UHGV virus genome: UHGV-0123062 | Length of the DNA: 36,434 bases | Source of the DNA: a virus | Strand: one strand, 5' to 3' | Part shown: piece after piece, positions 9,761 to 36,434 of the stretch | Layout of the letters: the number at the start of each line of letters is the position of its first letter | Numbering within the stretch: the stretch's first letter is position 1 | Notes under the pieces: generated by a model | The model's input: the letters and a program-made list of their open reading frames with translations, nothing else | What the model was told of the DNA's origin: nothing | The model's database searches: none | Position numbers and translations under genes: made by a program

Positions 9761-10720
9761 ATGAAAATTTGTATCGACGACGGCTCCACCAACATCAAGC
9801 TGGCATGGACTGAGAACGGCGAACGCCGCAACGCCATCAGCCCGAACAGCTTCAAGTCGGAATGGTCTGCGCCGTTCGGTGGCACGCAGCCCGCGAACTA
9901 CATGCTTGATGGCGTGCGCTATGGTTTTGATCCGGTCAGCGATCGCTTTGTCCAGACGACCGACACGCAATACCAGTACAGCGATGTGAATGTAATTGCC
10001 ATTCATCACGCGCTGGTCAAATCAGGCATCACACCACAGGAAGTGGATGTGGTTGTCACCCTGCCACTGAGCGAGTATTTCGACACAAACGCACAGCCGG
10101 ACATGGCCAACATCAACCGCAAAAAAGCGAACGTTATGCGCCCGGTGGAGTACCAGAACGGCGAAGCATTCACTATCCGTAACGTGCGGGTTATGCCTGA
10201 ATCCATTCCGGCTGGCTTTAAGGCACTGGCTGACATGAGTCCGTTTGAATCCCTGCTGATTGTGGATTTAGGCGGAACCACGCTGGATGTGGCAAAGGTT
10301 CAGGGACAACTGGCAGGTATCAGCCAGGTGTTTTGCGATCCACACGTAGGCGTTTCCCTGATGTCCGATGCCGTACTGTCGGTGATGGCCACTAACGGTA
10401 TGCGTACCAGTCACCACATCGCCAATACCATTATCGAACATCGCCATGATGAAGCCTGGCTGCGCCAGCACATCCACAATGACGCGCATTACGCCAGCCT
10501 GATGGCGGTTATTCGTGAAAAGGAAGAAACACTGAAACAACGCGTGATCCGCGCGCTGGCGGGTTTTTCGGGTTACGGGCGGGTGATGATTGTCGGTGGC
10601 GGGGCAGAAATTGTGGCACCCGCTATCCGCGAAGCCTGCGGAGTTAATGCGACTTTCATCGCGGACGGGGTGCCACAGTTTGCTCTGGTTAATGGGCTGT
10701 ACGCAATGGACAAGGAGTAA
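9761..10720 (+). CDS. parM: ParM/StbA-family actin-like partition ATPase
   Basis: N-terminal phosphate-1 motif (ICIDDGSTNIKLAW), ISPNSFK, YSDVNVIAIHHAL, VMPESIPAG, LIVDLGGTTLD and IVGGGAE match my recollection of plasmid R1 ParM along the whole length; AAGGA RBS. Confidence 0.85.
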   Translation: MKICIDDGSTNIKLAWTENGERRNAISPNSFKSEWSAPFGGTQPANYMLDGVRYGFDPVSDRFVQTTDTQYQYSDVNVIAIHHALVKSGITPQEVDVVVTLPLSEYFDTNAQPDMANINRKKANVMRPVEYQNGEAFTIRNVRVMPESIPAGFKALADMSPFESLLIVDLGGTTLDVAKVQGQLAGISQVFCDPHVGVSLMSDAVLSVMATNGMRTSHHIANTIIEHRHDEAWLRQHIHNDAHYASLMAVIREKEETLKQRVIRALAGFSGYGRVMIVGGGAEIVAPAIREACGVNATFIADGVPQFALVNGLYAMDKE

Positions 10721-15318: not shown

Positions 15319-15472
15319 TGCTCCCCCTGAGTAATTACAGGAAGATTACCCGCGCGCGAAACCGTTCTCCTTAACCCCCTGTTCTGGCCGTTTTCTTACA
15401 ACAAAAGCCCTTTGTATCAGCCTGTTACGCTTTGCCATCATGACTGAAGAACCAGTCAGAGGGGCAAAAACT
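15319..15472. promoter_or_regulatory. Divergent late promoter region (P-Q leftward, O-N-M-L rightward)
   Basis: Intergenic between divergent P and O; partial dyad TGT-N15-ACA (15380..15400), not the canonical TGT-N12-ACA, so assignment is by position only. Confidence 0.35.
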
Positions 15473-20134: not shown

Positions 20135-20276
20135 CCCACCCACATGGGGAAACCTCGGAATATGGGGCGACCGCCTTCTGGATGCACTGGAAACCTGTAA
20201 CGCGGATAAACGGGCCATTGCTGAACTGGATAAGAGAATAGCCGAACTGACACACCAGACGGGAGTAACACAATGA
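19995..20276 (+). CDS. lysC: o-spanin lipoprotein (Rz1 / LysC-like), embedded in +1 frame of the i-spanin gene
   Basis: Lipobox LLTGCAG, Pro-rich body; overlaps lysB out of frame; the listed ORF begins at GTG 19965. Confidence 0.6.
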   Translation: MNAPTLCLTLVLLTGCAGTQNAPGPAPSVRLIPQTLTMPVTPPPFPDPPTWGNLGIWGDRLLDALETCNADKRAIAELDKRIAELTHQTGVTQ

Positions 20277-22153
20277 CCAGTAAGAACTTTGCACTGATTA
20301 CAGCCATGACACAGGCTGAACTGACTCAAAAGGTGAATGAACATCTTGCGAAAGGGTGGCATCTTCAGGGGGAGACGCGGGTTGCCTACGAACCCGGCAC
20401 CCCGTGGTATCTAATGCAGGCAATGGTGGCCGATGGCACTACAGACATCTCACCTGATTCCCCCCAGCACGGCAGCGTGCCGGAGTGGTATTACGTGGTG
20501 GTACTTGCTGGTCAATCCAATGCCATGTCATATGGTGAGGGAATGCCGCTGCCGGATTCTTACGATGCGCCCCACCCACGCATTAAGCAACTGGCCCGTC
20601 GCAACACAGTGACTCCCGGTGGTAAAGCATGCGCATTTAACGACATCATTCCGGCAGACCACTGCCTGCATGATGTTCAGGATATGAGCGCACTGAATCA
20701 TCCGAAGGCAGACCTGAGCAAAGGGCAGTACGGCTGTGTCGGCCAGGGCTTACATATTGCCAAAAAACTGCTTCCGTATATCCCGAATAACGCGGGGATC
20801 CTGCTGGTACCATGCTGTCGTGGTGGTTCGGCATTCACCCAGGGCGCGGAGGGGACATTCAGTGCGGACACGGGGGCCAGCCAGGATTCGGCACGCTGGG
20901 GTGTGGGTAAACCGTTATATCAGGACCTGATCGCACGCACCAAAGCGGCATTACAGAAGAACCCGAAAAATGTGTTGCTGGCGGTGTGCTGGATGCAGGG
21001 CGAATTTGACATGAGCGCTGCCACCTACGCACAGCAACCGGACCTGTTCACGGCCATGCTGAAGCAGTTCCGTACTGACCTTTCCGGATTTAACGCGCAG
21101 TGCCATGGCGGCAGTGCTGCAGTTGTACCGTGGATTTGTGGCGACACGACGTATTACTGGAAAAACACATACGGCACACAGTATGACTCCGTCTACGGCG
21201 CGTACAAAAACAGGGAGAGCGACAACGTTTTCTTTGTGCCGTTCATGACCGACGGTAACGGCAACAACACGCCCACCAACTTACCGGCAGAAGACCCGGA
21301 TATTGCTGATGCAGGTTATTACGGCGCGCAATCCCGTAGTAATGGTAATTGGGTATCATCAAACCGCCCGACACATTTCAGTTCATGGGCGCGCAGGAGC
21401 ATTATTCCGGATCGTATGGCAACCGCTATTCTGAACGCAGCCGGGCGCACCTCAGCCTTCATCAGTGGTAAGGCACCGGAAATCAAACCCTCGCCCGGCG
21501 GCGACACTCCATCGGGGCCGTCTGATGGTGACACATCCGTTCATACAGTCTCCCTGCTGCCGACAGCCGGAGAGGCTGCTGCGCAGGGCTGGACCATCAC
21601 CGGCGGCAGTGTTGCGCTGGAAGATGGTGTGTTTAAGGTTACCAAGCAGAGCAATAAAACCTGGTCCCTGATGCATCCGGTGGATGACGCAGTCTCCCTG
21701 CTGACACGGGGTGGCAGACTGAGCTGTAAGTTTCGACTGTCAGGCGCACTGACCAACAACCAGTTCGGTCTGGGAATTTATCTGTATACCGATGTAGCGT
21801 TACCTGACGTCGTGGCGATGACCGGGACTGGTAACCCGTTCCTGATGTCGTTCTTCACCCAGACCACAGGCGGCAAACTGAATCTGATGCATCACAAGAA
21901 AGCCGGAAACACAAAGTTGGGCGAGTTCGGGAATTACAGTAACGACTGGCAGACGCTGGAGCTGGTGTTCACCGCCGGCAGTGCCACGGTTACTCCGAAA
22001 CTGAATGGAGTGGCTGGCCCGGCATTCCAGGTCATAAAAGACAGTCTGACACTGGGGCTGAATGCGCTGACGTTAACTGATATCACTAAAAATGCCGCGT
22101 ACGGCGTCGATATCGGCAGCCTGGTGCTGGAAATCAATAATCCCGCAGCATAA
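20273..22153 (+). CDS. NanS-p-like SGNH/SASA esterase with N-terminal DUF1737-like region and C-terminal beta-sandwich-like domain
   Basis: 626 aa; GQSNAMS catalytic-serine motif as in sialate O-acetylesterases; Pro/Gly-rich linker (PEIKPSPGGDTPSGPSDGD); inserted between lysis genes and R. Confidence 0.7.
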   Translation: MTSKNFALITAMTQAELTQKVNEHLAKGWHLQGETRVAYEPGTPWYLMQAMVADGTTDISPDSPQHGSVPEWYYVVVLAGQSNAMSYGEGMPLPDSYDAPHPRIKQLARRNTVTPGGKACAFNDIIPADHCLHDVQDMSALNHPKADLSKGQYGCVGQGLHIAKKLLPYIPNNAGILLVPCCRGGSAFTQGAEGTFSADTGASQDSARWGVGKPLYQDLIARTKAALQKNPKNVLLAVCWMQGEFDMSAATYAQQPDLFTAMLKQFRTDLSGFNAQCHGGSAAVVPWICGDTTYYWKNTYGTQYDSVYGAYKNRESDNVFFVPFMTDGNGNNTPTNLPAEDPDIADAGYYGAQSRSNGNWVSSNRPTHFSSWARRSIIPDRMATAILNAAGRTSAFISGKAPEIKPSPGGDTPSGPSDGDTSVHTVSLLPTAGEAAAQGWTITGGSVALEDGVFKVTKQSNKTWSLMHPVDDAVSLLTRGGRLSCKFRLSGALTNNQFGLGIYLYTDVALPDVVAMTGTGNPFLMSFFTQTTGGKLNLMHHKKAGNTKLGEFGNYSNDWQTLELVFTAGSATVTPKLNGVAGPAFQVIKDSLTLGLNALTLTDITKNAAYGVDIGSLVLEINNPAA

Positions 22154-22644: not shown

Positions 22645-23272
22645 GGCATTCACCCGCGTGGATGAAACCTTTGAGGCCATCCGCGACAGCCTGAATCAGC
22701 AGGCCATCAATAACATCGCCAGAAAGCTGGCACAGGATTTACGTCGCGCCCAGCAGGCACGTATCCGGTCACAGAAAGCGCCGGACGGGACCGCATGGAC
22801 ACCACGCAGACGCCGCGTAACCCGGATACAGGAGCGCATTCGCTTTATCTGGAATAACGAAGCACGCACGCTGAAAAACTGGCATCACGACACGGGGAAA
22901 TACGGGCGAACCATTACCGGGTGGGATGAGGATAAAAACAGCATCCGCACGTTTTACCGGGATGACATCGACCGTTTTCTGGAAATACGCACCCGGCGCA
23001 TCAACCAGGACAGCACAAAGCGCGTCCCCATGTTCGTAAAACTGCGCACCGCCCGCTACCTGAAAGCCCGTGCAGATGCCTCCGGTGTGACGGTGGGTTA
23101 CAGCGGCGTGGCCGCACGTATTGCACGCGTTCATCAGTTCGGTGAGCGCGATCAGGTTGCGCCGGGCATTTTCACCGATTACCCGGTACGTGAGCTGCTG
23201 GGTATCAGCCAGGCAGATGAGCGCCTGATTTATAACACGGTGCTGGGCCGGATTGCGGAGGCTGTACGGTGA
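22637..23272 (+). CDS. S: Tail completion protein (P2 S-like)
   Basis: ATG 22637 overlaps the R stop; listed ORF starts at GTG 22628. Confidence 0.8.
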   Translation: MDKAFTRVDETFEAIRDSLNQQAINNIARKLAQDLRRAQQARIRSQKAPDGTAWTPRRRRVTRIQERIRFIWNNEARTLKNWHHDTGKYGRTITGWDEDKNSIRTFYRDDIDRFLEIRTRRINQDSTKRVPMFVKLRTARYLKARADASGVTVGYSGVAARIARVHQFGERDQVAPGIFTDYPVRELLGISQADERLIYNTVLGRIAEAVR

Positions 23273-23850
23273 GCGCAGAACTCATGCGACTGCTGAGCAA
23301 CATCATCCGCACCGGGATCATCTCTGAAGTTGATGAGAAGTCCTGGCGCGTGCGCGTTCGCAGCGGCGAACTGGAAACAGGCTGGTTGCGCTGGAACACC
23401 ACGCGCGCGGGAGCCTTCAATGTGTGGCTGCCGCCATCACCAGGCGAACAGGTGGTAATTGCCTGCATTGGCGGCAACCCGGAAACCGCCATGATAATTG
23501 GCAGCCTGTGGAGTGATGCCAGTCCGGCCCCCGGCAAAAGCCTGAAAGAAATCGTGGTCAGCGCGCCGGATGGCGCGGTGTTCCGCTACGACGCAGACGC
23601 TGGCGCACTGAGCGCCAGCGGCATGAAAACAGCCACCCTGCAGGCATCCGTCAGCGTGACACTGGATACGCCCGTCGTGGAATGCACAAACCTTCTGAGA
23701 ACAGCGACGCTTGACGTCACAAAAGGGGGAAAGATGAGCGGCAATATCACGCACAGCGGCGGCAATTTCACCTCAAACGGTATCACAGTGCATACGCATA
23801 AACACGGTGGCGTTAAAGGTGGCAGCGATTCGACAGGAGGCCCGCAGTGA
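23269..23850 (+). CDS. V: Baseplate spike protein (P2 V-like)
   Basis: GTG start overlapping the S stop; C-terminal HTHKHGG motif as in P2 V. Confidence 0.85.
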   Translation: MSAELMRLLSNIIRTGIISEVDEKSWRVRVRSGELETGWLRWNTTRAGAFNVWLPPSPGEQVVIACIGGNPETAMIIGSLWSDASPAPGKSLKEIVVSAPDGAVFRYDADAGALSASGMKTATLQASVSVTLDTPVVECTNLLRTATLDVTKGGKMSGNITHSGGNFTSNGITVHTHKHGGVKGGSDSTGGPQ

Positions 23851-25698: not shown

Positions 25699-27122
25699 CA
25701 ATGAAATACTACGCCATTCTGACTAATCAGGGCGCGGCACGACTGGCTAACGCGACGATGCTCGGCAGTAAGCTGAATCTGACGCAAATGGCCGTTGGTG
25801 ATGCAAATGGTGTGTTACCAACACCAAACCCTGCACAAACAAAACTGATTAACCAGAAACGCATTGCACCGCTGAATCTTCTGAGTGTTGACCCTAACAA
25901 TCAGAGCCAGATTATTGCGGAGCAAATCATCCCTGAAGACGAGGGAGGATTCTGGATCCGTGAGATTGGTCTTTATGATGATAAAGGTGTACTCATTGCG
26001 GTGGCAAACTGCCCGGAAACGTACAAACCGCAGTTGCAGGAAGGCAGTGGACGCACCCAGACTATCCGCATGATTCTGGTTGTCACGAACACCAAAGCCA
26101 TCACGCTGAAAATCGACCCGTCTGTGGTTCTGGCAACCCGCAAATATGTGGATGATAAAATCTCAAAGCACGAGCAGTCACGACGTCACCCGGACGCCTC
26201 GCTGACCGCAAAAGGCTTTGTTCAACTTAGCAGCACCACCAACAGCACCTCTGAAACGCTGGCCGCAACACCGAAAGCGGTTAAGGCTGCATATGACCTG
26301 GCTAACGGGAAATATACCGCTCAGGATGCGACTACGGCACGAAAAGGCCTTGTTCAACTCAGTAGCGCCACCAACAGCACCTCTGAAACGCTGGCCGCAA
26401 CACCGAAAGCGGTTAAGGCTGCATATGACCTGGCTAACGGGAAACAACCGGCAGATGCCACGCTCACTGCTCTGGCAGGACTTGCCACTGCAGCAGATCG
26501 GTTGCCTTATTTTACCGGAGCAGACCGCGCAGCGCTGGCAACCCTTACAGCTATTGGTCGCGCTATTATCGCTAAGGGCAGTATAAAAGATGTCCTCAAT
26601 TACCTTGGTTTAGGAGAAGGCTCGGCGCTACCCGTTGGTGTGCCTGTTCCGTGGCCCACCGCCACACCGCCAGCAGGCTGGTTAAAGTGCGACGGGCGCG
26701 CCTTTACAAAAGAACAATATCCTGTTCTGGCCAGAGCCTACCCGACCCTCCGTCTTCCCGATTTACGCGGTGAGTTTATCCGTGGATGGGACGACGGGCG
26801 CAAAGTTGATACAGGACGTAAGTTGCTGTCCGCACAAGGGGCAACGCTGTTAAGAACAGCAATGCTGGATTATTATAACCAGGACACTACGGGAACCTCG
26901 GGGATAGTCGGCATGGGATTCAACAATGAAGATTCCATTACAGACCTTCGTGAGGGCAGCTTTAAAATGCCGGACGGGACAACATTCAGCGATCCTGTCA
27001 TAGCAATGTCAGACAATGGTATGCAGGCTACTATTCTGACCTCTATCAGAAGCGGGTATGCGAAGGGTATCACTGTCAGACCCCGTAGCATTGCACTTAA
27101 TTACATTGTGAGGGCAGTTTAA
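25695..27122 (+). CDS. H: Tail fibre protein (P2 H-like), C-terminal part inside the invertible segment
   Basis: 475 aa; N-terminal constant region, two 44-aa tandem repeats, C-terminal receptor-binding part whose upstream end is duplicated in inverted orientation at ~27995..28221. Confidence 0.9.
   Translation: MTMKYYAILTNQGAARLANATMLGSKLNLTQMAVGDANGVLPTPNPAQTKLINQKRIAPLNLLSVDPNNQSQIIAEQIIPEDEGGFWIREIGLYDDKGVLIAVANCPETYKPQLQEGSGRTQTIRMILVVTNTKAITLKIDPSVVLATRKYVDDKISKHEQSRRHPDASLTAKGFVQLSSTTNSTSETLAATPKAVKAAYDLANGKYTAQDATTARKGLVQLSSATNSTSETLAATPKAVKAAYDLANGKQPADATLTALAGLATAADRLPYFTGADRAALATLTAIGRAIIAKGSIKDVLNYLGLGEGSALPVGVPVPWPTATPPAGWLKCDGRAFTKEQYPVLARAYPTLRLPDLRGEFIRGWDDGRKVDTGRKLLSAQGATLLRTAMLDYYNQDTTGTSGIVGMGFNNEDSITDLREGSFKMPDGTTFSDPVIAMSDNGMQATILTSIRSGYAKGITVRPRSIALNYIVRAV
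26208..26471 (+). repeat. Tandem direct repeat, 2 x 132 bp, inside tail fibre gene H
   Basis: Near-identical 132-bp units encoding KG(F/L)VQLSS(T/A)TNSTSETLAATPKAVKAAYDLANGK; period measured between the ctgaaacgct landmarks (26251 and 26383). Confidence 0.9.
26605..26831 (+). repeat. Left inverted repeat of the invertible segment (~227 bp)
   Basis: Encodes LGLGEGSALPVGVPVPWPTATPPAGWLKCDGR...GRKLLS, which reappears in the minus-strand cassette. Confidence 0.8.
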
Positions 27123-27736
27123 TGAGTAACACTGCAGTTCTGGATGAAAACGGTATCGCCACTGTAGCGGGCGATATCACTGTATATCACTATGACGAGG
27201 AAACCCGGGAATACACCTCATCCTCTGTGGAGTATCTCGCCCTTGGGGTGGGTACTCCGGCACATTCGTGCGCCGATGCACCGCCGGAGGCAATTTCGGG
27301 TTACGTGGTTTGCCGGACTGCCACGCTGAACGGGTGGGAGCATGTGCCTGATCACCGCGGCGAGACGGTATACAGCACGGAGAACGGTAACCCCGTTCTG
27401 ATTACCCAACCGGGTGATTACCCGGCGGACACCACCACAAAACAGCCAGCCACGCCATGGGATACCTGGAACGGTGAGGCGTGGGTAACCGATACTGAAC
27501 GGCAGCGAACCGCAGAACTGGAGGTTGCCAGACAGCAACGCCAGCAACGGGTGAAACAGGCGATGGCGTCCGTCGATCTTATCAACCTCAAACTGCGTGC
27601 TGGTCGCAGTCTGACACCAGAAGAAACGGCAAAACTGAACGCCGTGCTGGATTATATCGACGAGCTGAACGCACTGGATATCAGCACGGCACCTGAAATC
27701 AGCTGGCCGGAAGCGCCACTGGCACTTGCCAGTTGA
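27122..27736 (+). CDS. G: Tail fibre assembly chaperone (P2 G-like)
   Basis: 204 aa; ATG overlaps the H stop; C-terminal segment ending ...WPEAPLALAS parallels the P2 G C-terminus as recalled. Confidence 0.8.
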   Translation: MSNTAVLDENGIATVAGDITVYHYDEETREYTSSSVEYLALGVGTPAHSCADAPPEAISGYVVCRTATLNGWEHVPDHRGETVYSTENGNPVLITQPGDYPADTTTKQPATPWDTWNGEAWVTDTERQRTAELEVARQQRQQRVKQAMASVDLINLKLRAGRSLTPEETAKLNAVLDYIDELNALDISTAPEISWPEAPLALAS

Positions 27737-27742
27737 ACGGTA

Positions 27743-28221
27743 TCACGCCGCCCTCACGATATAGTTAAACGCGATATTGCGGGGGCGGGTTATGTTAAAG
27801 AATGCTCCGTTTAATTCGGCTTTTGCGCGACTGTTTGTTCCACCCAGCATTGCGTACCACAAATAATCGCTACGGTAATTCCCCGCAAACACCTTATCGC
27901 CGCCATAGTCAATATTATTTCCGTTACTCATGTACGAGATATCAAGCGCAGAATCGTTATCGTCATGACCGCCGACCAGTGTACCTTTCTGCCATGAAAG
28001 CAACTTACGCCCCTCGTCAATCTTGCGCCCGTCGTCCCATCCACGGATAAACTCACCGCGTAAATCGGGAAGACGGAGGGTCGGGTAGACTCTGGCCAGA
28101 ACAGGATATTGTTCTTTTGTAAAGGTGCGCCCGTCGCACTTTAACCAGCCTGCTGGCGGTGTGGCAGTGGGCCACGGAACAGGTACACCAACGGGCAGCG
28201 CCGAGCCTTCCCCCAAACCAA
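27743..28221 (-). CDS. Alternative tail-fibre C-terminal cassette (promoterless, would fuse to constant H on inversion)
   Basis: Minus-strand reading frame shares the 66-aa junction segment with H then diverges to a different C-terminus ending NYIVRAA; the listed ORF 27743..28273 has no credible independent start. Confidence 0.65.
27995..28221 (-). repeat. Right inverted repeat of the invertible segment (~227 bp)
   Basis: Reverse complement encodes the same ~66-aa segment with a few substitutions. Confidence 0.8.
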
Positions 28222-28287
28222 CGTTTTCGTTTTTATCCCTACCTATACCAACTCTGTATTTTTCACGAAACAAAGAGGATGTTTTTT

Positions 28288-28887
28288 ATGCAAATTGGCT
28301 ATATTCGTGTGTCAACAAACGACCAGAACACGGATTTACAACGCAATGCACTGAACTGCGCAGGATGTGAACTGATTTTTGAAGATAAAATCAGCGGAAC
28401 GAAATCAACCAGACCGGGATTGAAAAAACTGCTCAGAACGCTATCAGAAGGAGATACGCTGGTTGTCTGGAAGCTGGACAGACTGGGCAGAAGTATGAAA
28501 CACCTGATCACGCTTATTGAGGAATTGCGGGAAAAAGGTGTTAATTTCCGTAGTCTGACGGACAGCATTGACACGTCAACACCCATGGGGCGTTTCTTTT
28601 TTCACGTCATGGGGGCTTTAGCCGAAATGGAACGTGAATTAATTGTAGAACGTACACTGGCCGGGCTGGCAGCAGCACGCGCACAAGGACGCATTGGCGG
28701 ACGTCGCCCGAAGTTGACAAAAGAACAACACGAGCAAATAGCGAGGCTGATTAAAAACGGTCATGACAGGAAACAACTGGCGATCATTTACGACATCGGC
28801 ATATCGACGATTTATCGTTATCACCCTGTAGGCGATATACAGGCTGAAGAAACAACCAGGCAGACTCAGGAAAATGAAAACCGCTAA
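28288..28887 (+). CDS. Serine DNA invertase (Hin/Gin/Cin/Pin family)
   Basis: N-terminus MQIGYIRVSTNDQNTDLQRNAL with catalytic Ser motif; C-terminal HTH; GAGG RBS; start trimmed to ATG 28288. Confidence 0.9.
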   Translation: MQIGYIRVSTNDQNTDLQRNALNCAGCELIFEDKISGTKSTRPGLKKLLRTLSEGDTLVVWKLDRLGRSMKHLITLIEELREKGVNFRSLTDSIDTSTPMGRFFFHVMGALAEMERELIVERTLAGLAAARAQGRIGGRRPKLTKEQHEQIARLIKNGHDRKQLAIIYDIGISTIYRYHPVGDIQAEETTRQTQENENR

Positions 28888-28906
28888 TCTGACCATTAGC
28901 GGTTTT
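28877..28906. terminator. Bidirectional terminator hairpin between the convergent invertase and U genes
   Basis: Perfect 12-bp stem AAAACCGCTAAT / ATTAGCGGTTTT with 6-nt loop, A/T tracts on both sides; overlaps the invertase stop codon. Confidence 0.7.
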
Positions 28907-28913
28907 GCGTTAA

Positions 28914-29402
28914 TCAAAACAGCCCTTTAACGGAGCTGGCCGCGCTGTTGAGGGATGATGTGACCTTATCTTTGAAGCCGGACAGCATATCACTGAACGA
29001 TGAGGATTGCAGGCGCTCCCGCAAATCCTCATCACAGCGTTCAAGAGTCAGTGAAAATTCTATCTTTTTCGCCTTACCGTAGCGATCAAACTCGGAACGG
29101 GTCGTATTCGTTTCAGTCAGTACATACATGCCGTAAATCTGCCCGACACCATCAATCAGAGGCCAGGGGCGTCCTGTATATGCCTGCGTGGTCAGCAACG
29201 AAAGCGACACTTCGCCACCTGTAATTTCAGGATAAAGCACGCCAGAAAGCACGATGCGATCATCACCTGCACCGATATACTGCCAGCTTGCTGAGCGGTT
29301 TACGCGCTCATTTTTCACATGCCGCCAGCTTTTGTTTTGCTGTAACTGCTGATGCGGCAACGTGCGCAGCTCAAAAACAAACATGCCGTAGATCATCATC
29401 AT
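28914..29402 (-). CDS. U: Tail protein (P2 U-like)
   Basis: Start taken at ATG 29402 (GAGGAG RBS 8 nt upstream on the minus strand); the listed ORF starts at 29408. Confidence 0.8.
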   Translation of the reverse strand: MMMIYGMFVFELRTLPHQQLQQNKSWRHVKNERVNRSASWQYIGAGDDRIVLSGVLYPEITGGEVSLSLLTTQAYTGRPWPLIDGVGQIYGMYVLTETNTTRSEFDRYGKAKKIEFSLTLERCDEDLRERLQSSSFSDMLSGFKDKVTSSLNSAASSVKGLF

Positions 29403-29414
29403 GGCCATGACTCC

Positions 29415-32228
29415 TCAATCTTTATCGTAAAAACTGCCACGCCCGGCACGGGCGCGCCGTTCCATTTCTGCCCTGACCATTTCACCGACCAGTTTCGCCA
29501 GTTCGCGGGGATTCTGCGTAACAACGTTATGCAGATGAACATGAATTTCACCACCAAATCCGGAGGCAACAGGCTCCCGGTTACGGGAAGTTACAGGAAC
29601 TGACGCCACTGGAGATCGTATGGCCTCCGCCACCGGGCGGGAGCTGGCCGCAACAACAGGGACCAGCGCCGGAGGCAGCGGAGCCGGGACCACGGGTGTG
29701 ATATTAATTGCGGGGGGCTTACTGACCTGCGCAATCTTCCGCTCCTGCCACTCCCCACGAACAGCAAGTGCGCGGGGCAGGTTCTTAAAGACAATATCGC
29801 CGGGGCCAATGCGTTTTTTCGTCTCATCAACCAGCTTACCTGTGTTATCAGCAATTTTGCTGAGTCTGCGCAGCGTACCGGTATTGCTGTCTGTGAGCGG
29901 TTTATTGTCTTTGGGGTTATCACCTCCGGTGCCATTGCCATTTTCCACAGGCTTCGGCGGATTGATTTTCGCCAGGTCCCCCTGAAGCAAGGCAACCTTG
30001 TCCTGAAGAATGGCCGCACGCTGTGCGTCTTCGATTTTCTTGCGCGCCCTTTCCGCTTCATCCGGAAGGACGCCAAGTTTTTCAAGTATCCACGCCAGCG
30101 TATCCAGCAGCATTTTTGCAGGTGTCAGAACAAGCTGTAACGCACCGCCAAGAACGCTACCGAATATCTCGCCAGCACTGGTACATTTATCCAGCGTTTC
30201 CTTGCTGGACTCCATCGGTGACAGCAGCGATTTAAACCAGTTAAACACCTGGCTGATCCCGCTCCCGATTGCGTCAAAAACAGGACCAAACCGTTCAAAG
30301 GTTTCGCGCAACGGGGTCAGCCTTTCCATAATCCCGTTGAACACCCCGGCATAAAACGCCTTAATGGGTTCCCAGTATTTCCAGATGAGAACCGCCGCAG
30401 CCACAAACGCAGCAGCAATCAATCCAACCGGACTGAACAGCGCCCCGATAGCGCCTCCCAGCAAAGAAACAGAACCCGTCAGCATTCCCCACAGCGCAGG
30501 CAACACCCGGACGACATTCATTGACCGGGTAAGAATGTCAAAACCAAGACGCAGGGTGGCCAGCTTTCCGTAAAGCACCCCAATAACCAGCGACAACGAG
30601 CCAATCGTTGCAGTCATTGCCAGCAACGCACCGCCTGCTATCAGTAGCTGGCGCGTCAGTACCGGATGGGCCTGCGCCAGCGAGGTGATTTTTTCAAGCA
30701 CCCGCGTGAGCCACTGCGTGACAGAACGCAGCGGACCGTCAACCAGATCACTGATGCGAATACGAAGACCTTCCCATGCGCTGTCGAGATTTTTCAGGTC
30801 CCCATCAAGATTATCGGCCATTACTTTTGCAACGCGATCGGCCTCTCCCCTTGCCCCCTGCAATTCTCTGGTCAGTTTTTGCAGCTCTCCTGAACCAGCC
30901 GCCGCAACAAGCGTCTGTAAACCAACGAACGCCTCTTCTCCGGCGATGTCCTTGAAGAAGGAGACCTGGTCCACCTGTCCGTATTTTTGTGTCGCCTTAT
31001 AGAGATCAAGCAGCACATCCTCCATCGGGCGCATTTTGCCTCTGGCGTCAGCAACTGACACCCCCAGCTCTTTCAGTGCATCAGCCGCAGCTTTTGGCGG
31101 TGATGCAAGGCGGGACAGACTTGCGCGCATGGCCGTACCAGCATCGCTTCCACGAAGACCATTATTGGCAAGCATCCCGGCCATGGCTGCCGCTTCTTCA
31201 AGACTGATACCAAGTTTTGCGGCAACCGGACCGGTATACTTCATGGTTTCGCCCAGCGCGCGTAAATCAGTATTGGTCCGGGTGAATGCCGCTGTCAGCG
31301 TATCGCCAACCCGGTCCATTTGATCGGCTGTCAGGTTGAACTGTGTGAGGATATTGGAGCCTATATCCGCCGTCTCGCCGAGTTCGACGCCACCTGCCAG
31401 CGCCATATTAAGAACACCGGGCAATGCGGCCTGAATGGCCTGCGGAGTAAAACCAGCCATTGCCAGAAAGCTCTGCCCACTGGCGGCATCACTCGCAGTA
31501 AACTGTGTTTCAGAACCAAGTTTTAACGCCTGCTCACGCAGCGCCTTAAACTGCGGGCTGTTTTTGTCGATTCGCGTCAGTGCCTGAACGCGGGACATCT
31601 CTTTGCCGAACCCGATCGCAGGCTGCAAAAAACGCCCGGCAGCATAGCCGCCAGCCGCTGCAGCACCAATTGCCAGCGCACCACCTGTTTTCAGTTTTCC
31701 CGCGGTTTCCTGCGCGCGCGAATACCGCTCACGCGCCCGCGTTACACGCGCAAGCGCCTGCCGTTCGCGTTCAAGCTGGTTGTTGTACTGTTCAGTGCGT
31801 CTGATGGCCTGCTGGATTGTGTTATCGCTGCCTGTCAGGGAAATGCCGTGGCGTTTCAGCTCTCCGCCAAGTTCCCGCATTTTCTGAATTTCCCGTGTGC
31901 GCGATTCATTCAGGCGTTCAAGCCGGGTGCTTAACTGCTGCATCAGCTTTTGTTGTTTTTCGCTGAGCACTGTACCCGTGCGTTGTAACTGATTAAGGGC
32001 GTTAAGCTGGCGTCGTGCTTTCACGATACCCGCATCCGCTTTACTGACAGCGTCGCGGGCGCGCTCAAATGAACGCGCCTGACGCTCGAGATTTTTGATC
32101 GCCCCCTGCGTTCGCTGGATGGAGTCACCAAACTGCCCCATCAGGCGGCGGGCGTTTTCGGCAGGCCGGGTCAGCCTGTCAACGGCGCTGAAAGCGACCC
32201 GGATATCAAGAGTCTTCATTGTCTGCAT
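29415..32228 (-). CDS. T: Tail tape-measure protein (P2 T-like)
   Basis: 937 aa; coiled-coil N-terminal third, hydrophobic Gly/Ala-rich central segments; between E/E' and U. Confidence 0.85.
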   Translation of the reverse strand: MQTMKTLDIRVAFSAVDRLTRPAENARRLMGQFGDSIQRTQGAIKNLERQARSFERARDAVSKADAGIVKARRQLNALNQLQRTGTVLSEKQQKLMQQLSTRLERLNESRTREIQKMRELGGELKRHGISLTGSDNTIQQAIRRTEQYNNQLERERQALARVTRARERYSRAQETAGKLKTGGALAIGAAAAGGYAAGRFLQPAIGFGKEMSRVQALTRIDKNSPQFKALREQALKLGSETQFTASDAASGQSFLAMAGFTPQAIQAALPGVLNMALAGGVELGETADIGSNILTQFNLTADQMDRVGDTLTAAFTRTNTDLRALGETMKYTGPVAAKLGISLEEAAAMAGMLANNGLRGSDAGTAMRASLSRLASPPKAAADALKELGVSVADARGKMRPMEDVLLDLYKATQKYGQVDQVSFFKDIAGEEAFVGLQTLVAAAGSGELQKLTRELQGARGEADRVAKVMADNLDGDLKNLDSAWEGLRIRISDLVDGPLRSVTQWLTRVLEKITSLAQAHPVLTRQLLIAGGALLAMTATIGSLSLVIGVLYGKLATLRLGFDILTRSMNVVRVLPALWGMLTGSVSLLGGAIGALFSPVGLIAAAFVAAAVLIWKYWEPIKAFYAGVFNGIMERLTPLRETFERFGPVFDAIGSGISQVFNWFKSLLSPMESSKETLDKCTSAGEIFGSVLGGALQLVLTPAKMLLDTLAWILEKLGVLPDEAERARKKIEDAQRAAILQDKVALLQGDLAKINPPKPVENGNGTGGDNPKDNKPLTDSNTGTLRRLSKIADNTGKLVDETKKRIGPGDIVFKNLPRALAVRGEWQERKIAQVSKPPAINITPVVPAPLPPALVPVVAASSRPVAEAIRSPVASVPVTSRNREPVASGFGGEIHVHLHNVVTQNPRELAKLVGEMVRAEMERRARAGRGSFYDKD

Positions 32229-32442
32229 TCCCGCTGCGAAGTGCCGCCCGCTCGCGCCAGCTAACCACTTCGCCGGGCGTCATCATGAAGATTTCGGCGG
32301 GCGACCAGTTAAAAATGGCGGCAATATCTGCCACAAAGTCTTCTATGTGCTCAAAGCACACAACCGTGATCAGGCTTCCGTCGCCTGTTCGTTCTTCCCG
32401 CCAGAGTCCGCACCGCTCAAAAAATTTACGGCAACCGCACAT
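32206..32442 (-). CDS. E' extension ORF, expressed as E+E' by -1 programmed ribosomal frameshift
   Basis: -1 frame ORF overlapping the E 3' end and the T 5' end; slippery T TTT TTG on the minus strand at 32418..32424. Confidence 0.6.
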   Translation of the reverse strand: MCGCRKFFERCGLWREERTGDGSLITVVCFEHIEDFVADIAAIFNWSPAEIFMMTPGEVVSWRERAALRSGNADNEDS

Positions 32443-32735
32443 AACTGAATAAAGTCACGGGATGCCATTTTTTTGATCGTCACTTCATCCAGTCGCGGTG
32501 ATGTCACGCGTGACAGCAGCGTAAACATGGATTCCGCTTTCAGATTCAGCACATCAGACAGCGACAAATCTCGCAGAGATCCAGCCTGCTCAATAGCCCC
32601 GGTGATCTCCACATACGTGATTTTTTCGCCGCCTCGCTCAATTGGTTGGGTAAGTTTTACGCCACGCTCACTGGTTTCTTTCACAGTGTCAGTAACTACC
32701 GTGTTTTCGGTATCGATGTTTTTCGTCTCTTTCAT
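32370..32735 (-). CDS. E: Tail assembly chaperone (P2 E-like), zero frame
   Basis: GGAG RBS; contains the slippery heptamer near its 3' end. Confidence 0.75.
   Translation of the reverse strand: MKETKNIDTENTVVTDTVKETSERGVKLTQPIERGGEKITYVEITGAIEQAGSLRDLSLSDVLNLKAESMFTLLSRVTSPRLDEVTIKKMASRDFIQLCAVAVNFLSGADSGGKNEQATEA
32418..32424 (-). promoter_or_regulatory. Programmed -1 frameshift slippery heptamer TTTTTTG (E to E+E')
   Basis: Seen directly; the E frame reads AAT TTT TTG AGC and the -1 frame continues into the E' ORF. Confidence 0.65.
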
Positions 32736-32789
32736 CAGGAAACTCCTTTCAGTCAGAGGCGACGCACTGCGCCGCCTGCATATTACTTA

Positions 32790-33302
32790 TCAGCCAAGCC
32801 CGAGCGCGGAACGGATGCGATCGGGCACAATGTCCTTGCCGTCCTTCCGGTAAATGAAGTTCAGCAGGTCAATCTCCCACAACGGGCGATCGTTAACACT
32901 CAGCTTGTAGTAGGTGTTTTTAATGGCGTAAGTGTGTGATGTGGCTTCGCCCTGTTTGGCTTCCCCCATATCAATTTCCGTCACACGTCCGCGCATTTCG
33001 ACTTCATACAGGTCGCTTTCTGCATCGGTGTAGTATTCACCCGCAAAACGCAGCAGCGTGCCGTCAATCGTGCCGCCATACTTAAGGAACAGCTCACGAA
33101 CTGCGCCCCCCATGACAAAGCTCGCATCAAGCGCGGAGTCGTCCAGACCGAGATCAATACTTACCGCACCCATCATGCCACCACCCCGGTAGCTGTCGGT
33201 TTTGCGCGTCAGCTTAGGCAGAGTGACGGACGTCACCTTACCCACTTCGTTTTCACCATCCACAAACAGCGTAAAAAAGCGAAGATGTTTTGGTACAGCC
33301 AT
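32790..33302 (-). CDS. FII: Tail tube protein (P2 FII-like)
   Basis: 170 aa; ATGA overlap with the FI stop. Confidence 0.85.
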   Translation of the reverse strand: MAVPKHLRFFTLFVDGENEVGKVTSVTLPKLTRKTDSYRGGGMMGAVSIDLGLDDSALDASFVMGGAVRELFLKYGGTIDGTLLRFAGEYYTDAESDLYEVEMRGRVTEIDMGEAKQGEATSHTYAIKNTYYKLSVNDRPLWEIDLLNFIYRKDGKDIVPDRIRSALGLG

Positions 33303-34486
33303 CAGGCACCTCCCAGCACCGCAAATGCGGGACCAAAGAATTCATCAGTAAACGACTGGTAAAGCTCCATGTCTTCCAGCGGAGGAACGGGCGTATATTT
33401 GTAGCGAATACGCACACGCCCCTGACGTAAACCCGTGGTGCTGTTATCCACCACGTCATACCAGCACTCCGCACCAATCAGTTTCCCGACAGTAACCAGC
33501 GAATCCAGTTTTGCTCTGATGGCGCTGATAACATCCTTCACGTTCGCAGGTGTCAGTGGACTGTCGATGGTTTCAAACTGCGCTTCCGCAATTGAATCAG
33601 CCAGCACCTGTGCGGTTCGGGTATACACCTCAAAGATGTAGGCGTTCGTTTCCGGTGTGCGGTTGCCCCAGAAGCGGAACCCGTTACGACGAATAATGGT
33701 CGTGATTTCTTTGTTGTTGAGGCTGTTGGCATCACTGTCTTCGGCCTGTAACGACCAGAACACATGCCTCGACATCCCCAGCACATTTTTAACCGGAACG
33801 TTGGACAGCGATTTGTGCCAGCCCTGCTCATGGTCAATGTACGCACGAAGGCCGCACGCATAAGCAGGCGCGGGGAACGTTTCGTTTTTGCCACTTTTCG
33901 GGTTGTAGGCGATGAAGTCAGGCCATAAGAGCATCACCTCACGTTCGTTGAATTTCTGGCGGTAGGTAATCGCCTCAGCCATCGTGTTACAACCATGACA
34001 TGTGGCATACACAAACGCGCGCAGTTTACCCGCAATCACGCACAGGGATTTTGTCACCGCCTCCGTGTCCAGCTCCGGCGCGGCCAGAATACGCGGACGG
34101 TATCCGATGCTTTCATCCTGCTCTGCAACAAGCAGCGCATACATCCCCGTATAGCTGCCGTCAGATTCAGAACCACCGATAACCAGTTGATCCTGCGTCT
34201 TTCCGTTTTCTTCTTTGTGTTCAGCCACGCGAACGACGATCACCTTTGTGCTCACCTGGTCTGCGATGGCCTTAAGCGCACGATAAAGCGTCCCCGTTGT
34301 CCCGCATTTTCCCAGCACGTCATTGACGCGGGTCAGCAGTGTGGGCTTGTTCAGCGGGAACAGCTTCGCGTCCGCATCATCCGCCGTTGCCACGATACCG
34401 ATAACGCTGGAATCAACATCATTAATCGCTGTTACCAGGTCGGTACTTTCCGTAACACGGGCACCATGAAAACGAGTTTCACTCAT
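33302..34486 (-). CDS. FI: Contractile tail sheath protein (P2 FI-like)
   Basis: 394 aa; first gene of the leftward tail operon. Confidence 0.9.
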   Translation of the reverse strand: MSETRFHGARVTESTDLVTAINDVDSSVIGIVATADDADAKLFPLNKPTLLTRVNDVLGKCGTTGTLYRALKAIADQVSTKVIVVRVAEHKEENGKTQDQLVIGGSESDGSYTGMYALLVAEQDESIGYRPRILAAPELDTEAVTKSLCVIAGKLRAFVYATCHGCNTMAEAITYRQKFNEREVMLLWPDFIAYNPKSGKNETFPAPAYACGLRAYIDHEQGWHKSLSNVPVKNVLGMSRHVFWSLQAEDSDANSLNNKEITTIIRRNGFRFWGNRTPETNAYIFEVYTRTAQVLADSIAEAQFETIDSPLTPANVKDVISAIRAKLDSLVTVGKLIGAECWYDVVDNSTTGLRQGRVRIRYKYTPVPPLEDMELYQSFTDEFFGPAFAVLGGA

Positions 34487-34642
34487 AGCTTCAGCCCCTT
34501 GTATCCGTTAAATGATTCGGCAACAATCATCACCCACCACGCGCGTAATCTCACCCCTGCGCCGTTCTCCCGCCACGGCGACAACAAAAAGCAGTAACCC
34601 ACTCCGCACGCACATGCGACCATGCCGCACAGGGAGGGAAAG
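34487..34642. promoter_or_regulatory. Divergent intergenic region between FI (leftward) and D (rightward); presumed late promoters
   Basis: Inferred from gene arrangement only; no canonical TGT-N12-ACA element found. Confidence 0.3.
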
Positions 34643-35752
34643 ATGACCAACACCACCATGCAATTGCTCAGTCAGAGCACAGACCCCGTGAAAATGCCGG
34701 ATTTTGATATTCTCGCGGAGGGGGAAACGCTGTCCGGCGTGGCAGAGCGCCTGATGAGTCTGTCACTGACCGACAACCGGGGATTTGAAGCGGACCAGCT
34801 CACCATCACGCTGGATGATGCGGATGGTCAGTTGCAGCTACCGCCACGGGGCGCGCGTCTGACGGTTCTCATTGGCTGGAAAGGCGAACCGCTGACAGAA
34901 AAAGGCACTTACATTGTTGATGAAATCGCTCACGAAGGACCGCCGGACAGGCTGACGGTTTCAGCCAGAAGCGCAGATTTTCGGGATGAATTTAACGTTA
35001 AACGTGAGGTGTCCTGGCATGATGTGACCGTTGAGCGCGTGGTATCCGCCATCGCTCATCGGTACGGTCTGAAACCGCAAATCAGCGAAATGCTGATGGA
35101 TATCGAAATCGACCACGCCGACCAGACCGAAGAAAGCGATATGTCCTTCCTTACGCGCATGGCGGAAATGCTGGGCGCAATCACCACGGTAAAAAGCGGT
35201 AATCTGTTATTCATCATGCCCGGCGGTGGCGTGAACGCACAGGGCCAGCCGTTGCCATCGTTTGCCATCACACGCAGCAGCGGCGATCGCCATCAGTTCC
35301 GCATTGCTGACCGCGAAGCGTATACGGGGGTACGCGCTTACTGGCTTGATCTTAATTACGGGAAAAAGAAAAAAGTCAGCGTGAAACGCCGTAAACCGCC
35401 AAAACCCAAAAAGGAGAAAAGCAGCAGCCGTGAAGGTGATTATATGGAAGGCGCGGAAGGCAATGTGTTTGTGTTACGCAAGACTTATCAGAACGAGCAG
35501 GCAGCAAGACGCGCAGCGGCGGCAAAGTGGCAGCAACTACAACGCGGAGCCGCATCATTCTCCATCACGCTGGCGCGTGGACGTGCAGAACTCTACCCCG
35601 AAATGCATGGCACGGTAACAGGATTTAAAAGCGAGATTGATAATCAGGACTGGATCATTGCAAAAGCCGAGCACACCATTGATAACAGCGGTTTTACCAC
35701 GCAGCTTGAGCTTGAGGCAAAAATCCCGGAATGGATAGCGGAAACAGAGTGA
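34643..35752 (+). CDS. D: Tail protein D (P2 D-like)
   Basis: Start taken at ATG 34643 (GGGAGGG RBS); listed ORF begins at 34622. Confidence 0.85.
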   Translation: MTNTTMQLLSQSTDPVKMPDFDILAEGETLSGVAERLMSLSLTDNRGFEADQLTITLDDADGQLQLPPRGARLTVLIGWKGEPLTEKGTYIVDEIAHEGPPDRLTVSARSADFRDEFNVKREVSWHDVTVERVVSAIAHRYGLKPQISEMLMDIEIDHADQTEESDMSFLTRMAEMLGAITTVKSGNLLFIMPGGGVNAQGQPLPSFAITRSSGDRHQFRIADREAYTGVRAYWLDLNYGKKKKVSVKRRKPPKPKKEKSSSREGDYMEGAEGNVFVLRKTYQNEQAARRAAAAKWQQLQRGAASFSITLARGRAELYPEMHGTVTGFKSEIDNQDWIIAKAEHTIDNSGFTTQLELEAKIPEWIAETE

Positions 35753-35792
35753 GCAACTTAGAATAGGCAGCACCACGTTAAGGGAGGTCGCT

Positions 35793-36053
35793 ATGTTCCG
35801 TTGTCCGCTTTGTGGCGCATCTGCCCGTATCCGCACCAGTCGTCCGGAAAATGATTCAAACACCGTGCGGCAAAAGTATTACCAGTGTAACAATCTGGAA
35901 TGCGGCGTATGCTTCTCAACACTGGAAGCTTTCCATAAATTCACATCAAAACACGCCTCCGGCGTTCACTCTTCAGAAGGTATCCCGTGGCATGAGCTGC
36001 CAGCTTCACACAGGGGAAACAATCAGATGAGTTTGCCTTTACCTCAGAATTAA
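35793..36053 (+). CDS. ogr: Late transcription activator, zinc finger (Ogr-like)
   Basis: N-terminal C-x2-C ... C-x4-C pattern (MFRCPLCGASARIRTSR...YQCNNLEC) as in P2 Ogr; GGGAGG RBS; terminal position in the prophage. Confidence 0.85.
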   Translation: MFRCPLCGASARIRTSRPENDSNTVRQKYYQCNNLECGVCFSTLEAFHKFTSKHASGVHSSEGIPWHELPASHRGNNQMSLPLPQN

Positions 36054-36113
36054 CAGGCAGAATTGCCGGAGTAACAAAAAAGCGATAGATTACGCGCGGG
36101 TGCCTTTCGGCTG

Positions 36114-36326
36114 ATGGTCGGAGGGAATACCCGAAGGCCAGATGTGGAAAGGCCCCGGAAAACATCTCTGTTTAACCGAGGCCCTAACCGCATTACCTTG
36201 ACAAGTGAAAGGTTAGCGCCTCTCCGGAAAAGGAGCAAGTGCTATGTCGCAAAAATCGCTTACGGCCATCACGTTCTGCGTGACGGCAATCCTCATCATC
36301 TGGATGCTGCACGGTTCGCTGTGTGA
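36114..36326 (+). CDS. Possible mok-like overlapping leader ORF (70 codons)
   Basis: Listed ORF starts upstream of the hok-like gene and overlaps it in another frame, as in hok/mok/sok loci; sequence itself is uninformative. Confidence 0.3.
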   Translation: MVGGNTRRPDVERPRKTSLFNRGPNRITLTSERLAPLRKRSKCYVAKIAYGHHVLRDGNPHHLDAARFAV

Positions 36327-36384
36327 AATACGGATGAGTTTCTGGGGAGCGGAGTTTGCGGCGTTCTTACAGTGTAAGCAGTAA
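36244..36384 (+). CDS. Hok/Gef-family type I toxin (46 aa)
   Basis: Below the ORF-track cutoff; product MSQKSLTAITFCVTAILIIWMLHGSLCEIRMSFWGAEFAAFLQCKQ has an N-terminal TM helix and the conserved SLCE(I/L)R and AAF(L) signatures; AGGAG RBS 8 nt upstream. Confidence 0.6.
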   Translation: MSQKSLTAITFCVTAILIIWMLHGSLCEIRMSFWGAEFAAFLQCKQ

Positions 36385-36434
36385 GGAAACCGCGACGGGG
36401 AAGGCAACTTCCCCGTCAATCGGTTGCCAGGGTA

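Follow-up and report, generated by a model that had tools for sequence, protein, structure and literature searches.

In the 36.4-kb window analysed here, the whole stretch of 36,434 nucleotides and a complete P2-family prophage, the tail genes FI, FII, E, T and U run leftward as one block while D and ogr run rightward. We regard it as practically certain that this order reflects a fixed, lineage-wide inversion of the FI–U block relative to phage P2, and the account as a whole, in which a fixed and old inversion is combined with a model of two promoters sharing one dyad, is highly probable. The gene order itself is already visible in publicly annotated genomes, including those of KSP20, P88, SEN4/SEN5 and many RefSeq prophages. 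Within the literature searched, of which coverage was partial, we found neither an explicit account of the inversion, including in PMC5285337, PMC5261728 (SEN phages) and PMC6456863, nor a paper commenting on a shared FI/D promoter. The bidirectional Ogr-dependent F/D promoter that we infer would be the only mildly new element.

Gene content and orientation of the tail block

The integrase gene int (50–1057) lies on the minus strand and is followed on the plus strand by the early genes and then A (6862–9684), by Q and P on the minus strand, and by the genes from O to G, H and G included, on the plus strand up to 27736. All genes of the FI–U block are on the minus strand. From left to right these are gpU, a tail protein (28914–29408; Pfam Phage_P2_GpU, 5.5e-39; 46% identity to P2 U); the tape measure protein gpT (29415–32228; PhageMin_Tail, 1.6e-56; 33% identity to P2 T); the E' frame, which gives the E+E' −1 frameshift product (32206–32442; Phage_P2_GpE, 2.6e-12); the tail chaperone gpE (32370–32735; 32% identity to P2 E, and a tail protein in the P88 and RefSeq annotation); the tail tube gpFII (32790–33302; Phage_tube, 7.5e-47; 44% identity to P2 FII); and the tail sheath gpFI (33302–34486; Pfam sheath domains; 45% identity to P2 FI, 383 aa). 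The plus strand resumes with gpD, the tail/baseplate hub (34643–35752; Phage_GPD; 48% identity to P2 D; start as in P88), and with the late activator gene ogr (35793–36053; Ogr_Delta, 5.1e-14; 36% identity to P2 Ogr), whose product carries a C-X2-C-X24-C-X4-C zinc finger.

Orthology was assessed by tblastn against P2 (NC_001895). The products of U, T, E, FII, FI, D and ogr are orthologues of their P2 counterparts at about 31–48% amino acid identity, a range similar to that of the other genes of the prophage (25–69%). The strand assignment made in the preliminary description, FI through U on the minus strand with D and ogr on the plus strand, is thus borne out by the open reading frames, Pfam and tblastn. 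Its statement that FI to D form one co-directional operon in P2 agrees with the P2 record, which annotates FI, FII, E, E', T, U and D as rightward from pF. Measured against this P2 layout, the FI–U block of the window is reversed with respect to the genes on either side of it. The two systems share the same seven products, the internal FI-to-U order, the E/E' slippery site and the placement of ogr after D; in P2, however, the genes form one operon co-directional with H–G, whereas in the window D stands apart and points away from FI, and an invertase gene fills the slot that P2 uses for Z/fun. All homologues of the canonical F operon (Peduovirus/Eganvirus synteny) are therefore present, without the single co-directional operon.

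The start of D sets the width of the spacer that separates it from FI. The D reading frame is open from an upstream ATG at 34622, and the ATG at 34643 is preceded by the SD sequence GGGAGGG. In P88, a 1-nt insertion between the equivalents of these two codons places the upstream ATG out of frame. Given the strong SD sequence, the P88 annotation and the lack of in-frame conservation of the upstream ATG, D almost certainly begins at 34643, in which case FI and D diverge across 156 bp, the distance given previously. In the RefSeq (PGAP) annotation of the identical prophage of Escherichia coli 1450, D is listed as a truncated 267-aa protein (27953–28753 of locus L002, corresponding to 34952–35752 of the window), with a bogus partial ORF added on the opposite strand; the D frame is intact from 34643. 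Translated from that codon, D aligns with P2 D nearly end to end, and the shortened RefSeq version is likely an annotation artefact.

A slippery heptamer, TTTTTTG, occurs on the minus strand at 32424–32418, close to the end of E and with the GpE-domain E' frame downstream. The P2 record annotates an E/E' frameshift site, and the P2-type −1 frameshift of the tail chaperone appears to be conserved in the window.

The prophage also encodes functions unrelated to the tail. A 626-aa ORF (20273–22153, plus strand), which separates the lysis genes from R within the late operon, combines DUF1737, SASA and DUF6645, of which SASA is a carbohydrate esterase domain of the sialate-O-acetylesterase type. 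It has no PADLOC match, its domain set resembles that of the NanS-p esterases of Stx prophages, and it is probably a cargo gene. After the replication gene A come the gene for a ParM actin-like segregation protein and that for a small partner (9761–10720 and downstream, plus strand), so that this integrated P2-like prophage carries a partition module of the plasmid type. A hok/gef-family toxin gene (about 36244–36384, plus strand) follows ogr at the right prophage end, as it does in P88, and the 350-bp stretch containing it matches many Stx-converting phages at 83%.

Distribution and origin of the inverted order

Three origins had been offered for the arrangement in the preliminary description: an ancestral inversion, a lineage-specific arrangement or a mis-assembly. 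The first two are upheld, with the order recovered in four genera of Peduoviridae and in 40 prophages that form one clade, and the third falls. The 9.4-kb region matches a prophage located next to serS in E. coli strain 1450 at 100% identity, so that the window has an identical counterpart in RefSeq, and 646 E. coli records are collinear with the region at coverage of at least 80%. When the real FI|D junction (33990–35100) was used as query against 5426 complete E. coli genomes, it was contiguous in 1355, about a quarter. A synthetic un-inverted junction, made by fusing the end of the invertase gene with the F promoter and the 5' portion of FI, was contiguous in none of the 1602 genomes matching either half. 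Against a wrong orientation of the 5.6-kb block by the assembler stand these counts and the isolated phages, which were sequenced independently and have the same order; the block ends also lack long repeats that could have misled an assembler. Departure from P2 synteny is the sole ground for suspecting such an error, no supporting evidence was found, and we give mis-assembly virtually no credence; it was rejected on the two junction counts.

The closest isolated relatives are the Xuanwuvirus phages P88, 500465-2, P884B11, PhiR44_2, Chuche and Citrobacter phage PhiSM, which share 92–96% DNA identity with the window and have the same order. P88 is 93.4% identical over 86% of 27000–36434 and phage 500465-2 is 95.6% identical to the window region. 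In P88 and its Xuanwuvirus relatives the sequence invertase–U–T–E–FII–FI–D–ogr, its orientations and the D start are those of the window, and the FI/D spacer of P88 differs by 1 nt. The window is accordingly P88-like both in nucleotide identity and in gene order, with G and any cargo converging on U, the series U, T, E, FII and FI pointing leftward, and D and ogr diverging from FI. P88 forms plaques, with a burst of about 65, and has a contractile tail (PMC5285337), and PhiSM is an active temperate phage (PMC6456863); the inverted arrangement is therefore functional.

Searches with FI and D (tblastn) against a phage collection showed D and FI to be divergent in another four lineages, represented by Salmonella phage SEN5 (Senquatrovirus; FI 55% identical), Klebsiella phages Kp4848-1 (Reipivirus; 70%) and Kp4877-2 (Reginaelenavirus; 68%) and Serratia phage KSP20 (68%). 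SEN4/SEN5, Reipivirus, Reginaelenavirus and KSP20 resemble the window in the divergence of D and FI, in the convergence of U with the tail-fibre genes and in a TGT-N12-ACA motif within the spacer, but differ from it in having FI identities of only 55–70% and other cargo between G and U, which in SEN5 is a macro-domain gene with no invertase. The P2 order was found in P2, 186, FSLSP004, Yersinia phages and a Zymomonas prophage.

Prophages were surveyed by taking, for each bacterial species, a single genome in which FI aligned, giving 80 loci classified by tblastn. Forty were P88-type; they share 55% identity or more with the FI of the window and came from about 20 enterobacterial genera: Salmonella, Citrobacter, Enterobacter, Kosakonia, Klebsiella, Raoultella, Trabulsiella, Yokenella, Mixta, Pantoea, Erwinia, Brenneria, Pectobacterium, Symbiopectobacterium, Serratia, Chania, Dryocola, Providencia, Morganella and Xenorhabdus. 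Another 39 were P2-type and the remaining one was truncated at the locus, all of them at no more than 51% identity to the same FI. Every classifiable locus from outside the Enterobacterales (Acinetobacter, Pseudomonas, Paraburkholderia, Collimonas, Solimicrobium and Celerinatantimonas) was P2-type. The comparison with related P2-like prophages that had been proposed thus finds this orientation to be the common one in the lineage, an outcome named in advance as counting against the order being exceptional. One match was anomalous in its host label: a 226-kb contig assigned to a Firmicute ('Vagococcus sp. WN89Y', NZ_JBQPOM010000071.1) carries a P88-like prophage whose FI is 97% identical to the E. 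coli one, which probably reflects contamination or a mislabelled assembly.

In quick neighbour-joining trees, built from tblastn segments and rooted at the midpoint, the P88-type loci were monophyletic for each of FI, FII, U and D, nesting inside the P2-type in the tree of D. With the P88-type loci forming one clade and all other classifiable loci being P2-type, the most economical reading of the sequences is that one old inversion occurred in the ancestor of an enterobacterial branch of the Peduoviridae and has been kept since. Replacement of the module, in which FI–U would have been acquired in reverse from another contractile-tail element, was weighed against this reading. P2-like genomes are mosaic, and a tree of the baseplate gene J does not separate the P88 and P2 types, so the genomes are mosaic elsewhere. 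Yet FI, FII, T and U are P2 orthologues with identities like those of the flanking genes; D, although outside the block, splits into the same clades as FI, FII and U; and both the E/E' frameshift site and a 73-nt spacing between the dyad described below and FI have been retained. Replacement consequently appears improbable, and a single inversion remains our preferred origin.

The left junction and the serine invertase

At the left end of the block lies a serine DNA invertase gene (28288–28887, plus strand; Pfam Resolvase and HTH_7), the PGAP start of which maps to 28288. Its stop (28887) and that of U (28914) converge, leaving 26 bp between the genes. A terminator scan located a perfect 12-bp hairpin across this junction (28877–28906), bordered by an A-run at one end and a T-run at the opposite end and having RNAfold energies of −16.9 and −15.6 kcal/mol for the two strands. 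It is plausible as a candidate bidirectional terminator at the end of the leftward FI–U operon; a crude hairpin-plus-T-run scan detected a terminator after U in 12 of 41 P88-type loci.

The preliminary description had connected one breakpoint with the invertase, and this connection is not supported. The only long inverted repeats, 229 nt at 93% identity (26602–26830 and 27996–28224), bracket the tail-fibre segment, and on this basis the invertase is assigned to that invertible segment and not to the FI–U block. No inverted repeat flanks the block at 28.9 and 34.5 kb, the best pairs spanning it being 27 nt at 74%, which is chance level. SEN5 and many P88-type prophages carry the same inverted block with no invertase at the G/U junction, so the coincidence of enzyme and breakpoint is no more than a consequence of where cargo is commonly carried, between G and the F genes.

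These observations also bear on a programmed inversion, by which the adjacent invertase would flip FI–U and the window would capture one of two states. The proximity of the enzyme, whose gene ends 26 bp from the block, is what recommends it. Against it stand, besides the placement of the repeats and the invertase-free relatives, the absence of the flipped junction from genomes in which the observed one is so frequent, and the expectation that flipping would part either FI–U or D from the dyad and abolish tail synthesis. We consider such a switch very improbable. As a Hin/Gin/Cin-type invertible segment, FI–U fails for want of bracketing repeats and because only the observed orientation was found among the E. 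coli genomes searched. The order is better described as fixed.

The tail-fibre segment has features of its own. In one orientation its repeats enclose the C-terminus of H together with G (26602–28273); for the opposite orientation there is an alternative H C-terminal fragment with a Collar domain (27743–28273, minus strand). P88 differs from the window in having two tail-fibre assembly genes and a longer H, where the window has one assembly gene.

The FI/D spacer and late transcription

The Ogr-dependent late promoters of P2 have the published consensus TGT-N12-ACA (PMC3931495). In the window, exact matches number five against 9.6 expected, and none is intergenic. A dyad was recognised in the FI/D spacer only after one mismatch was allowed and relatives were compared: TCT-N12-ACA at 34566–34583, which has TCT for TGT and is a candidate Ogr-type site common to divergent F and D promoters. 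The same motif has a second copy in the window's own P/O spacer (15383–15400). An extended form, T[GC]T-N12-ACAACAA, a pattern chosen post hoc from the sequences, occurs twice against 0.10 expected, at 15383–15404 in the P/O spacer and at 34566–34587 in the FI/D spacer.

We aligned 46 P88-type FI/D spacers on the T(G/C)T-N12-ACA dyad, which was present in 43, starting 68–82 nt from the FI start. All of these dyads keep the half-sites T.T and ACA, the N12 interior varying freely; TGT-N12-ACA stands at this place in about half of the clade, and TCT is found in part of it. At P2 pF the dyad lies 73 nt from FI, the same spacing as here (69–79 nt). A strict dyad lies upstream of FI in only seven of 41 P2-type loci, so that the notion of pF moving together with the block draws chiefly on P2.

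Hexamers resembling −10 elements (xAxxAT) are located 35–40 nt from the dyad ends on both sides. The predicted leftward F promoter has GATGAT at 34526–34531 (minus strand), with a predicted start near 34519, the equally spaced hexamer of relatives being GAATAT or GATTAT; the predicted rightward D promoter has GACCAT at 34618–34623 (plus strand), with a predicted start near 34630, and relatives have AACTAT or AACCAT, again at the same distance. On the D side the genera share a conserved CGCGCGCGC, followed by ATGAAAC(C/T)ATCAG, at a constant spacing from the dyad; its counterpart on the FI side, in the direction of FI, is the matching GAATAT/GATTAT element. Each predicted start would be about 55 nt from the dyad centre. 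The start sites and their Ogr dependence are predictions from geometry and conservation. A consensus scan detected no sigma-70 consensus promoter in the spacer, and a cognate Ogr/Delta zinc-finger activator, with the four-cysteine motif, is encoded in the window.

The closest precedent is the P2 pP/pO pair, at which one activator site, with its dyad centre at 3071.5, is 55.5 nt from both mapped starts (3016 and 3127). The FI/D spacer resembles it in having the dyad midway, about 55 nt from each predicted start, and differs in its locus, FI/D instead of P/O, and in the left half-site, TCT instead of TGT. We consider it reasonably likely that one Ogr-type site serves the promoters of both FI–U and D. 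The earlier argument that D needs its own promoter is reasonable, and the spacer supplies a conserved candidate.

Alternatively, D could be driven by an Ogr-independent promoter or by another route, leaving the dyad to FI only. In its favour, GACCAT is a weak −10 hexamer. This alternative must nevertheless contend with the spacer's lack of a sigma-70 consensus promoter, with a D-side element that keeps its distance from the dyad and mirrors the FI side, and with the pP/pO precedent of one site for two promoters; plus-strand transcription from upstream would, in addition, have to run antisense through 5.6 kb, beyond the hairpin terminator. We judge it unlikely and retain the shared site as the working model.

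Elsewhere in the late region, S and V are about 11 nt apart (junction 23269–23290), which leaves no room for a pV-type promoter, and the dyad was not found there. With so short a gap and no dyad, the O operon may be one unbroken unit extending from O to G, and the lineage may use two dyads for four late promoters, compared with the three sites of P2.

Taken together, the following history is proposed. An ancestral inversion likely had one breakpoint a short way upstream of the activator site of pF and the other between U and D, and would have carried the F promoter along with the block, placing it back-to-back with D. A single palindromic dyad would then lie about 55 nt from two predicted starts; the leftward transcript would extend from FI to U and end at the hairpin, and the rightward one would cover D, probably reading into ogr. 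With one dyad between the F and D promoters, both halves of the former F operon would still be switched on jointly by Ogr. We lean towards the view that the inversion made pF a second bidirectional late promoter, serving FI–U leftward and D–ogr rightward, and that this has been kept since the common ancestor of Xuanwuvirus, Senquatrovirus, Reipivirus, Reginaelenavirus and many enterobacterial prophages.

As the normal order of a very common prophage lineage, the arrangement matters little beyond housekeeping: an order found in so large a share of complete E. coli genomes is not to be flagged as an anomaly or an assembly fault. The divergent D/FI junction provides a clean synteny marker that distinguishes the P88-like from the P2/186-like branch of the Peduoviridae. 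If the promoter model is true, ogr stands directly under an Ogr-activated promoter, and the spacer dyad offers a testable example of how a palindromic activator site lets an inversion cut an operon in two with co-regulation kept.
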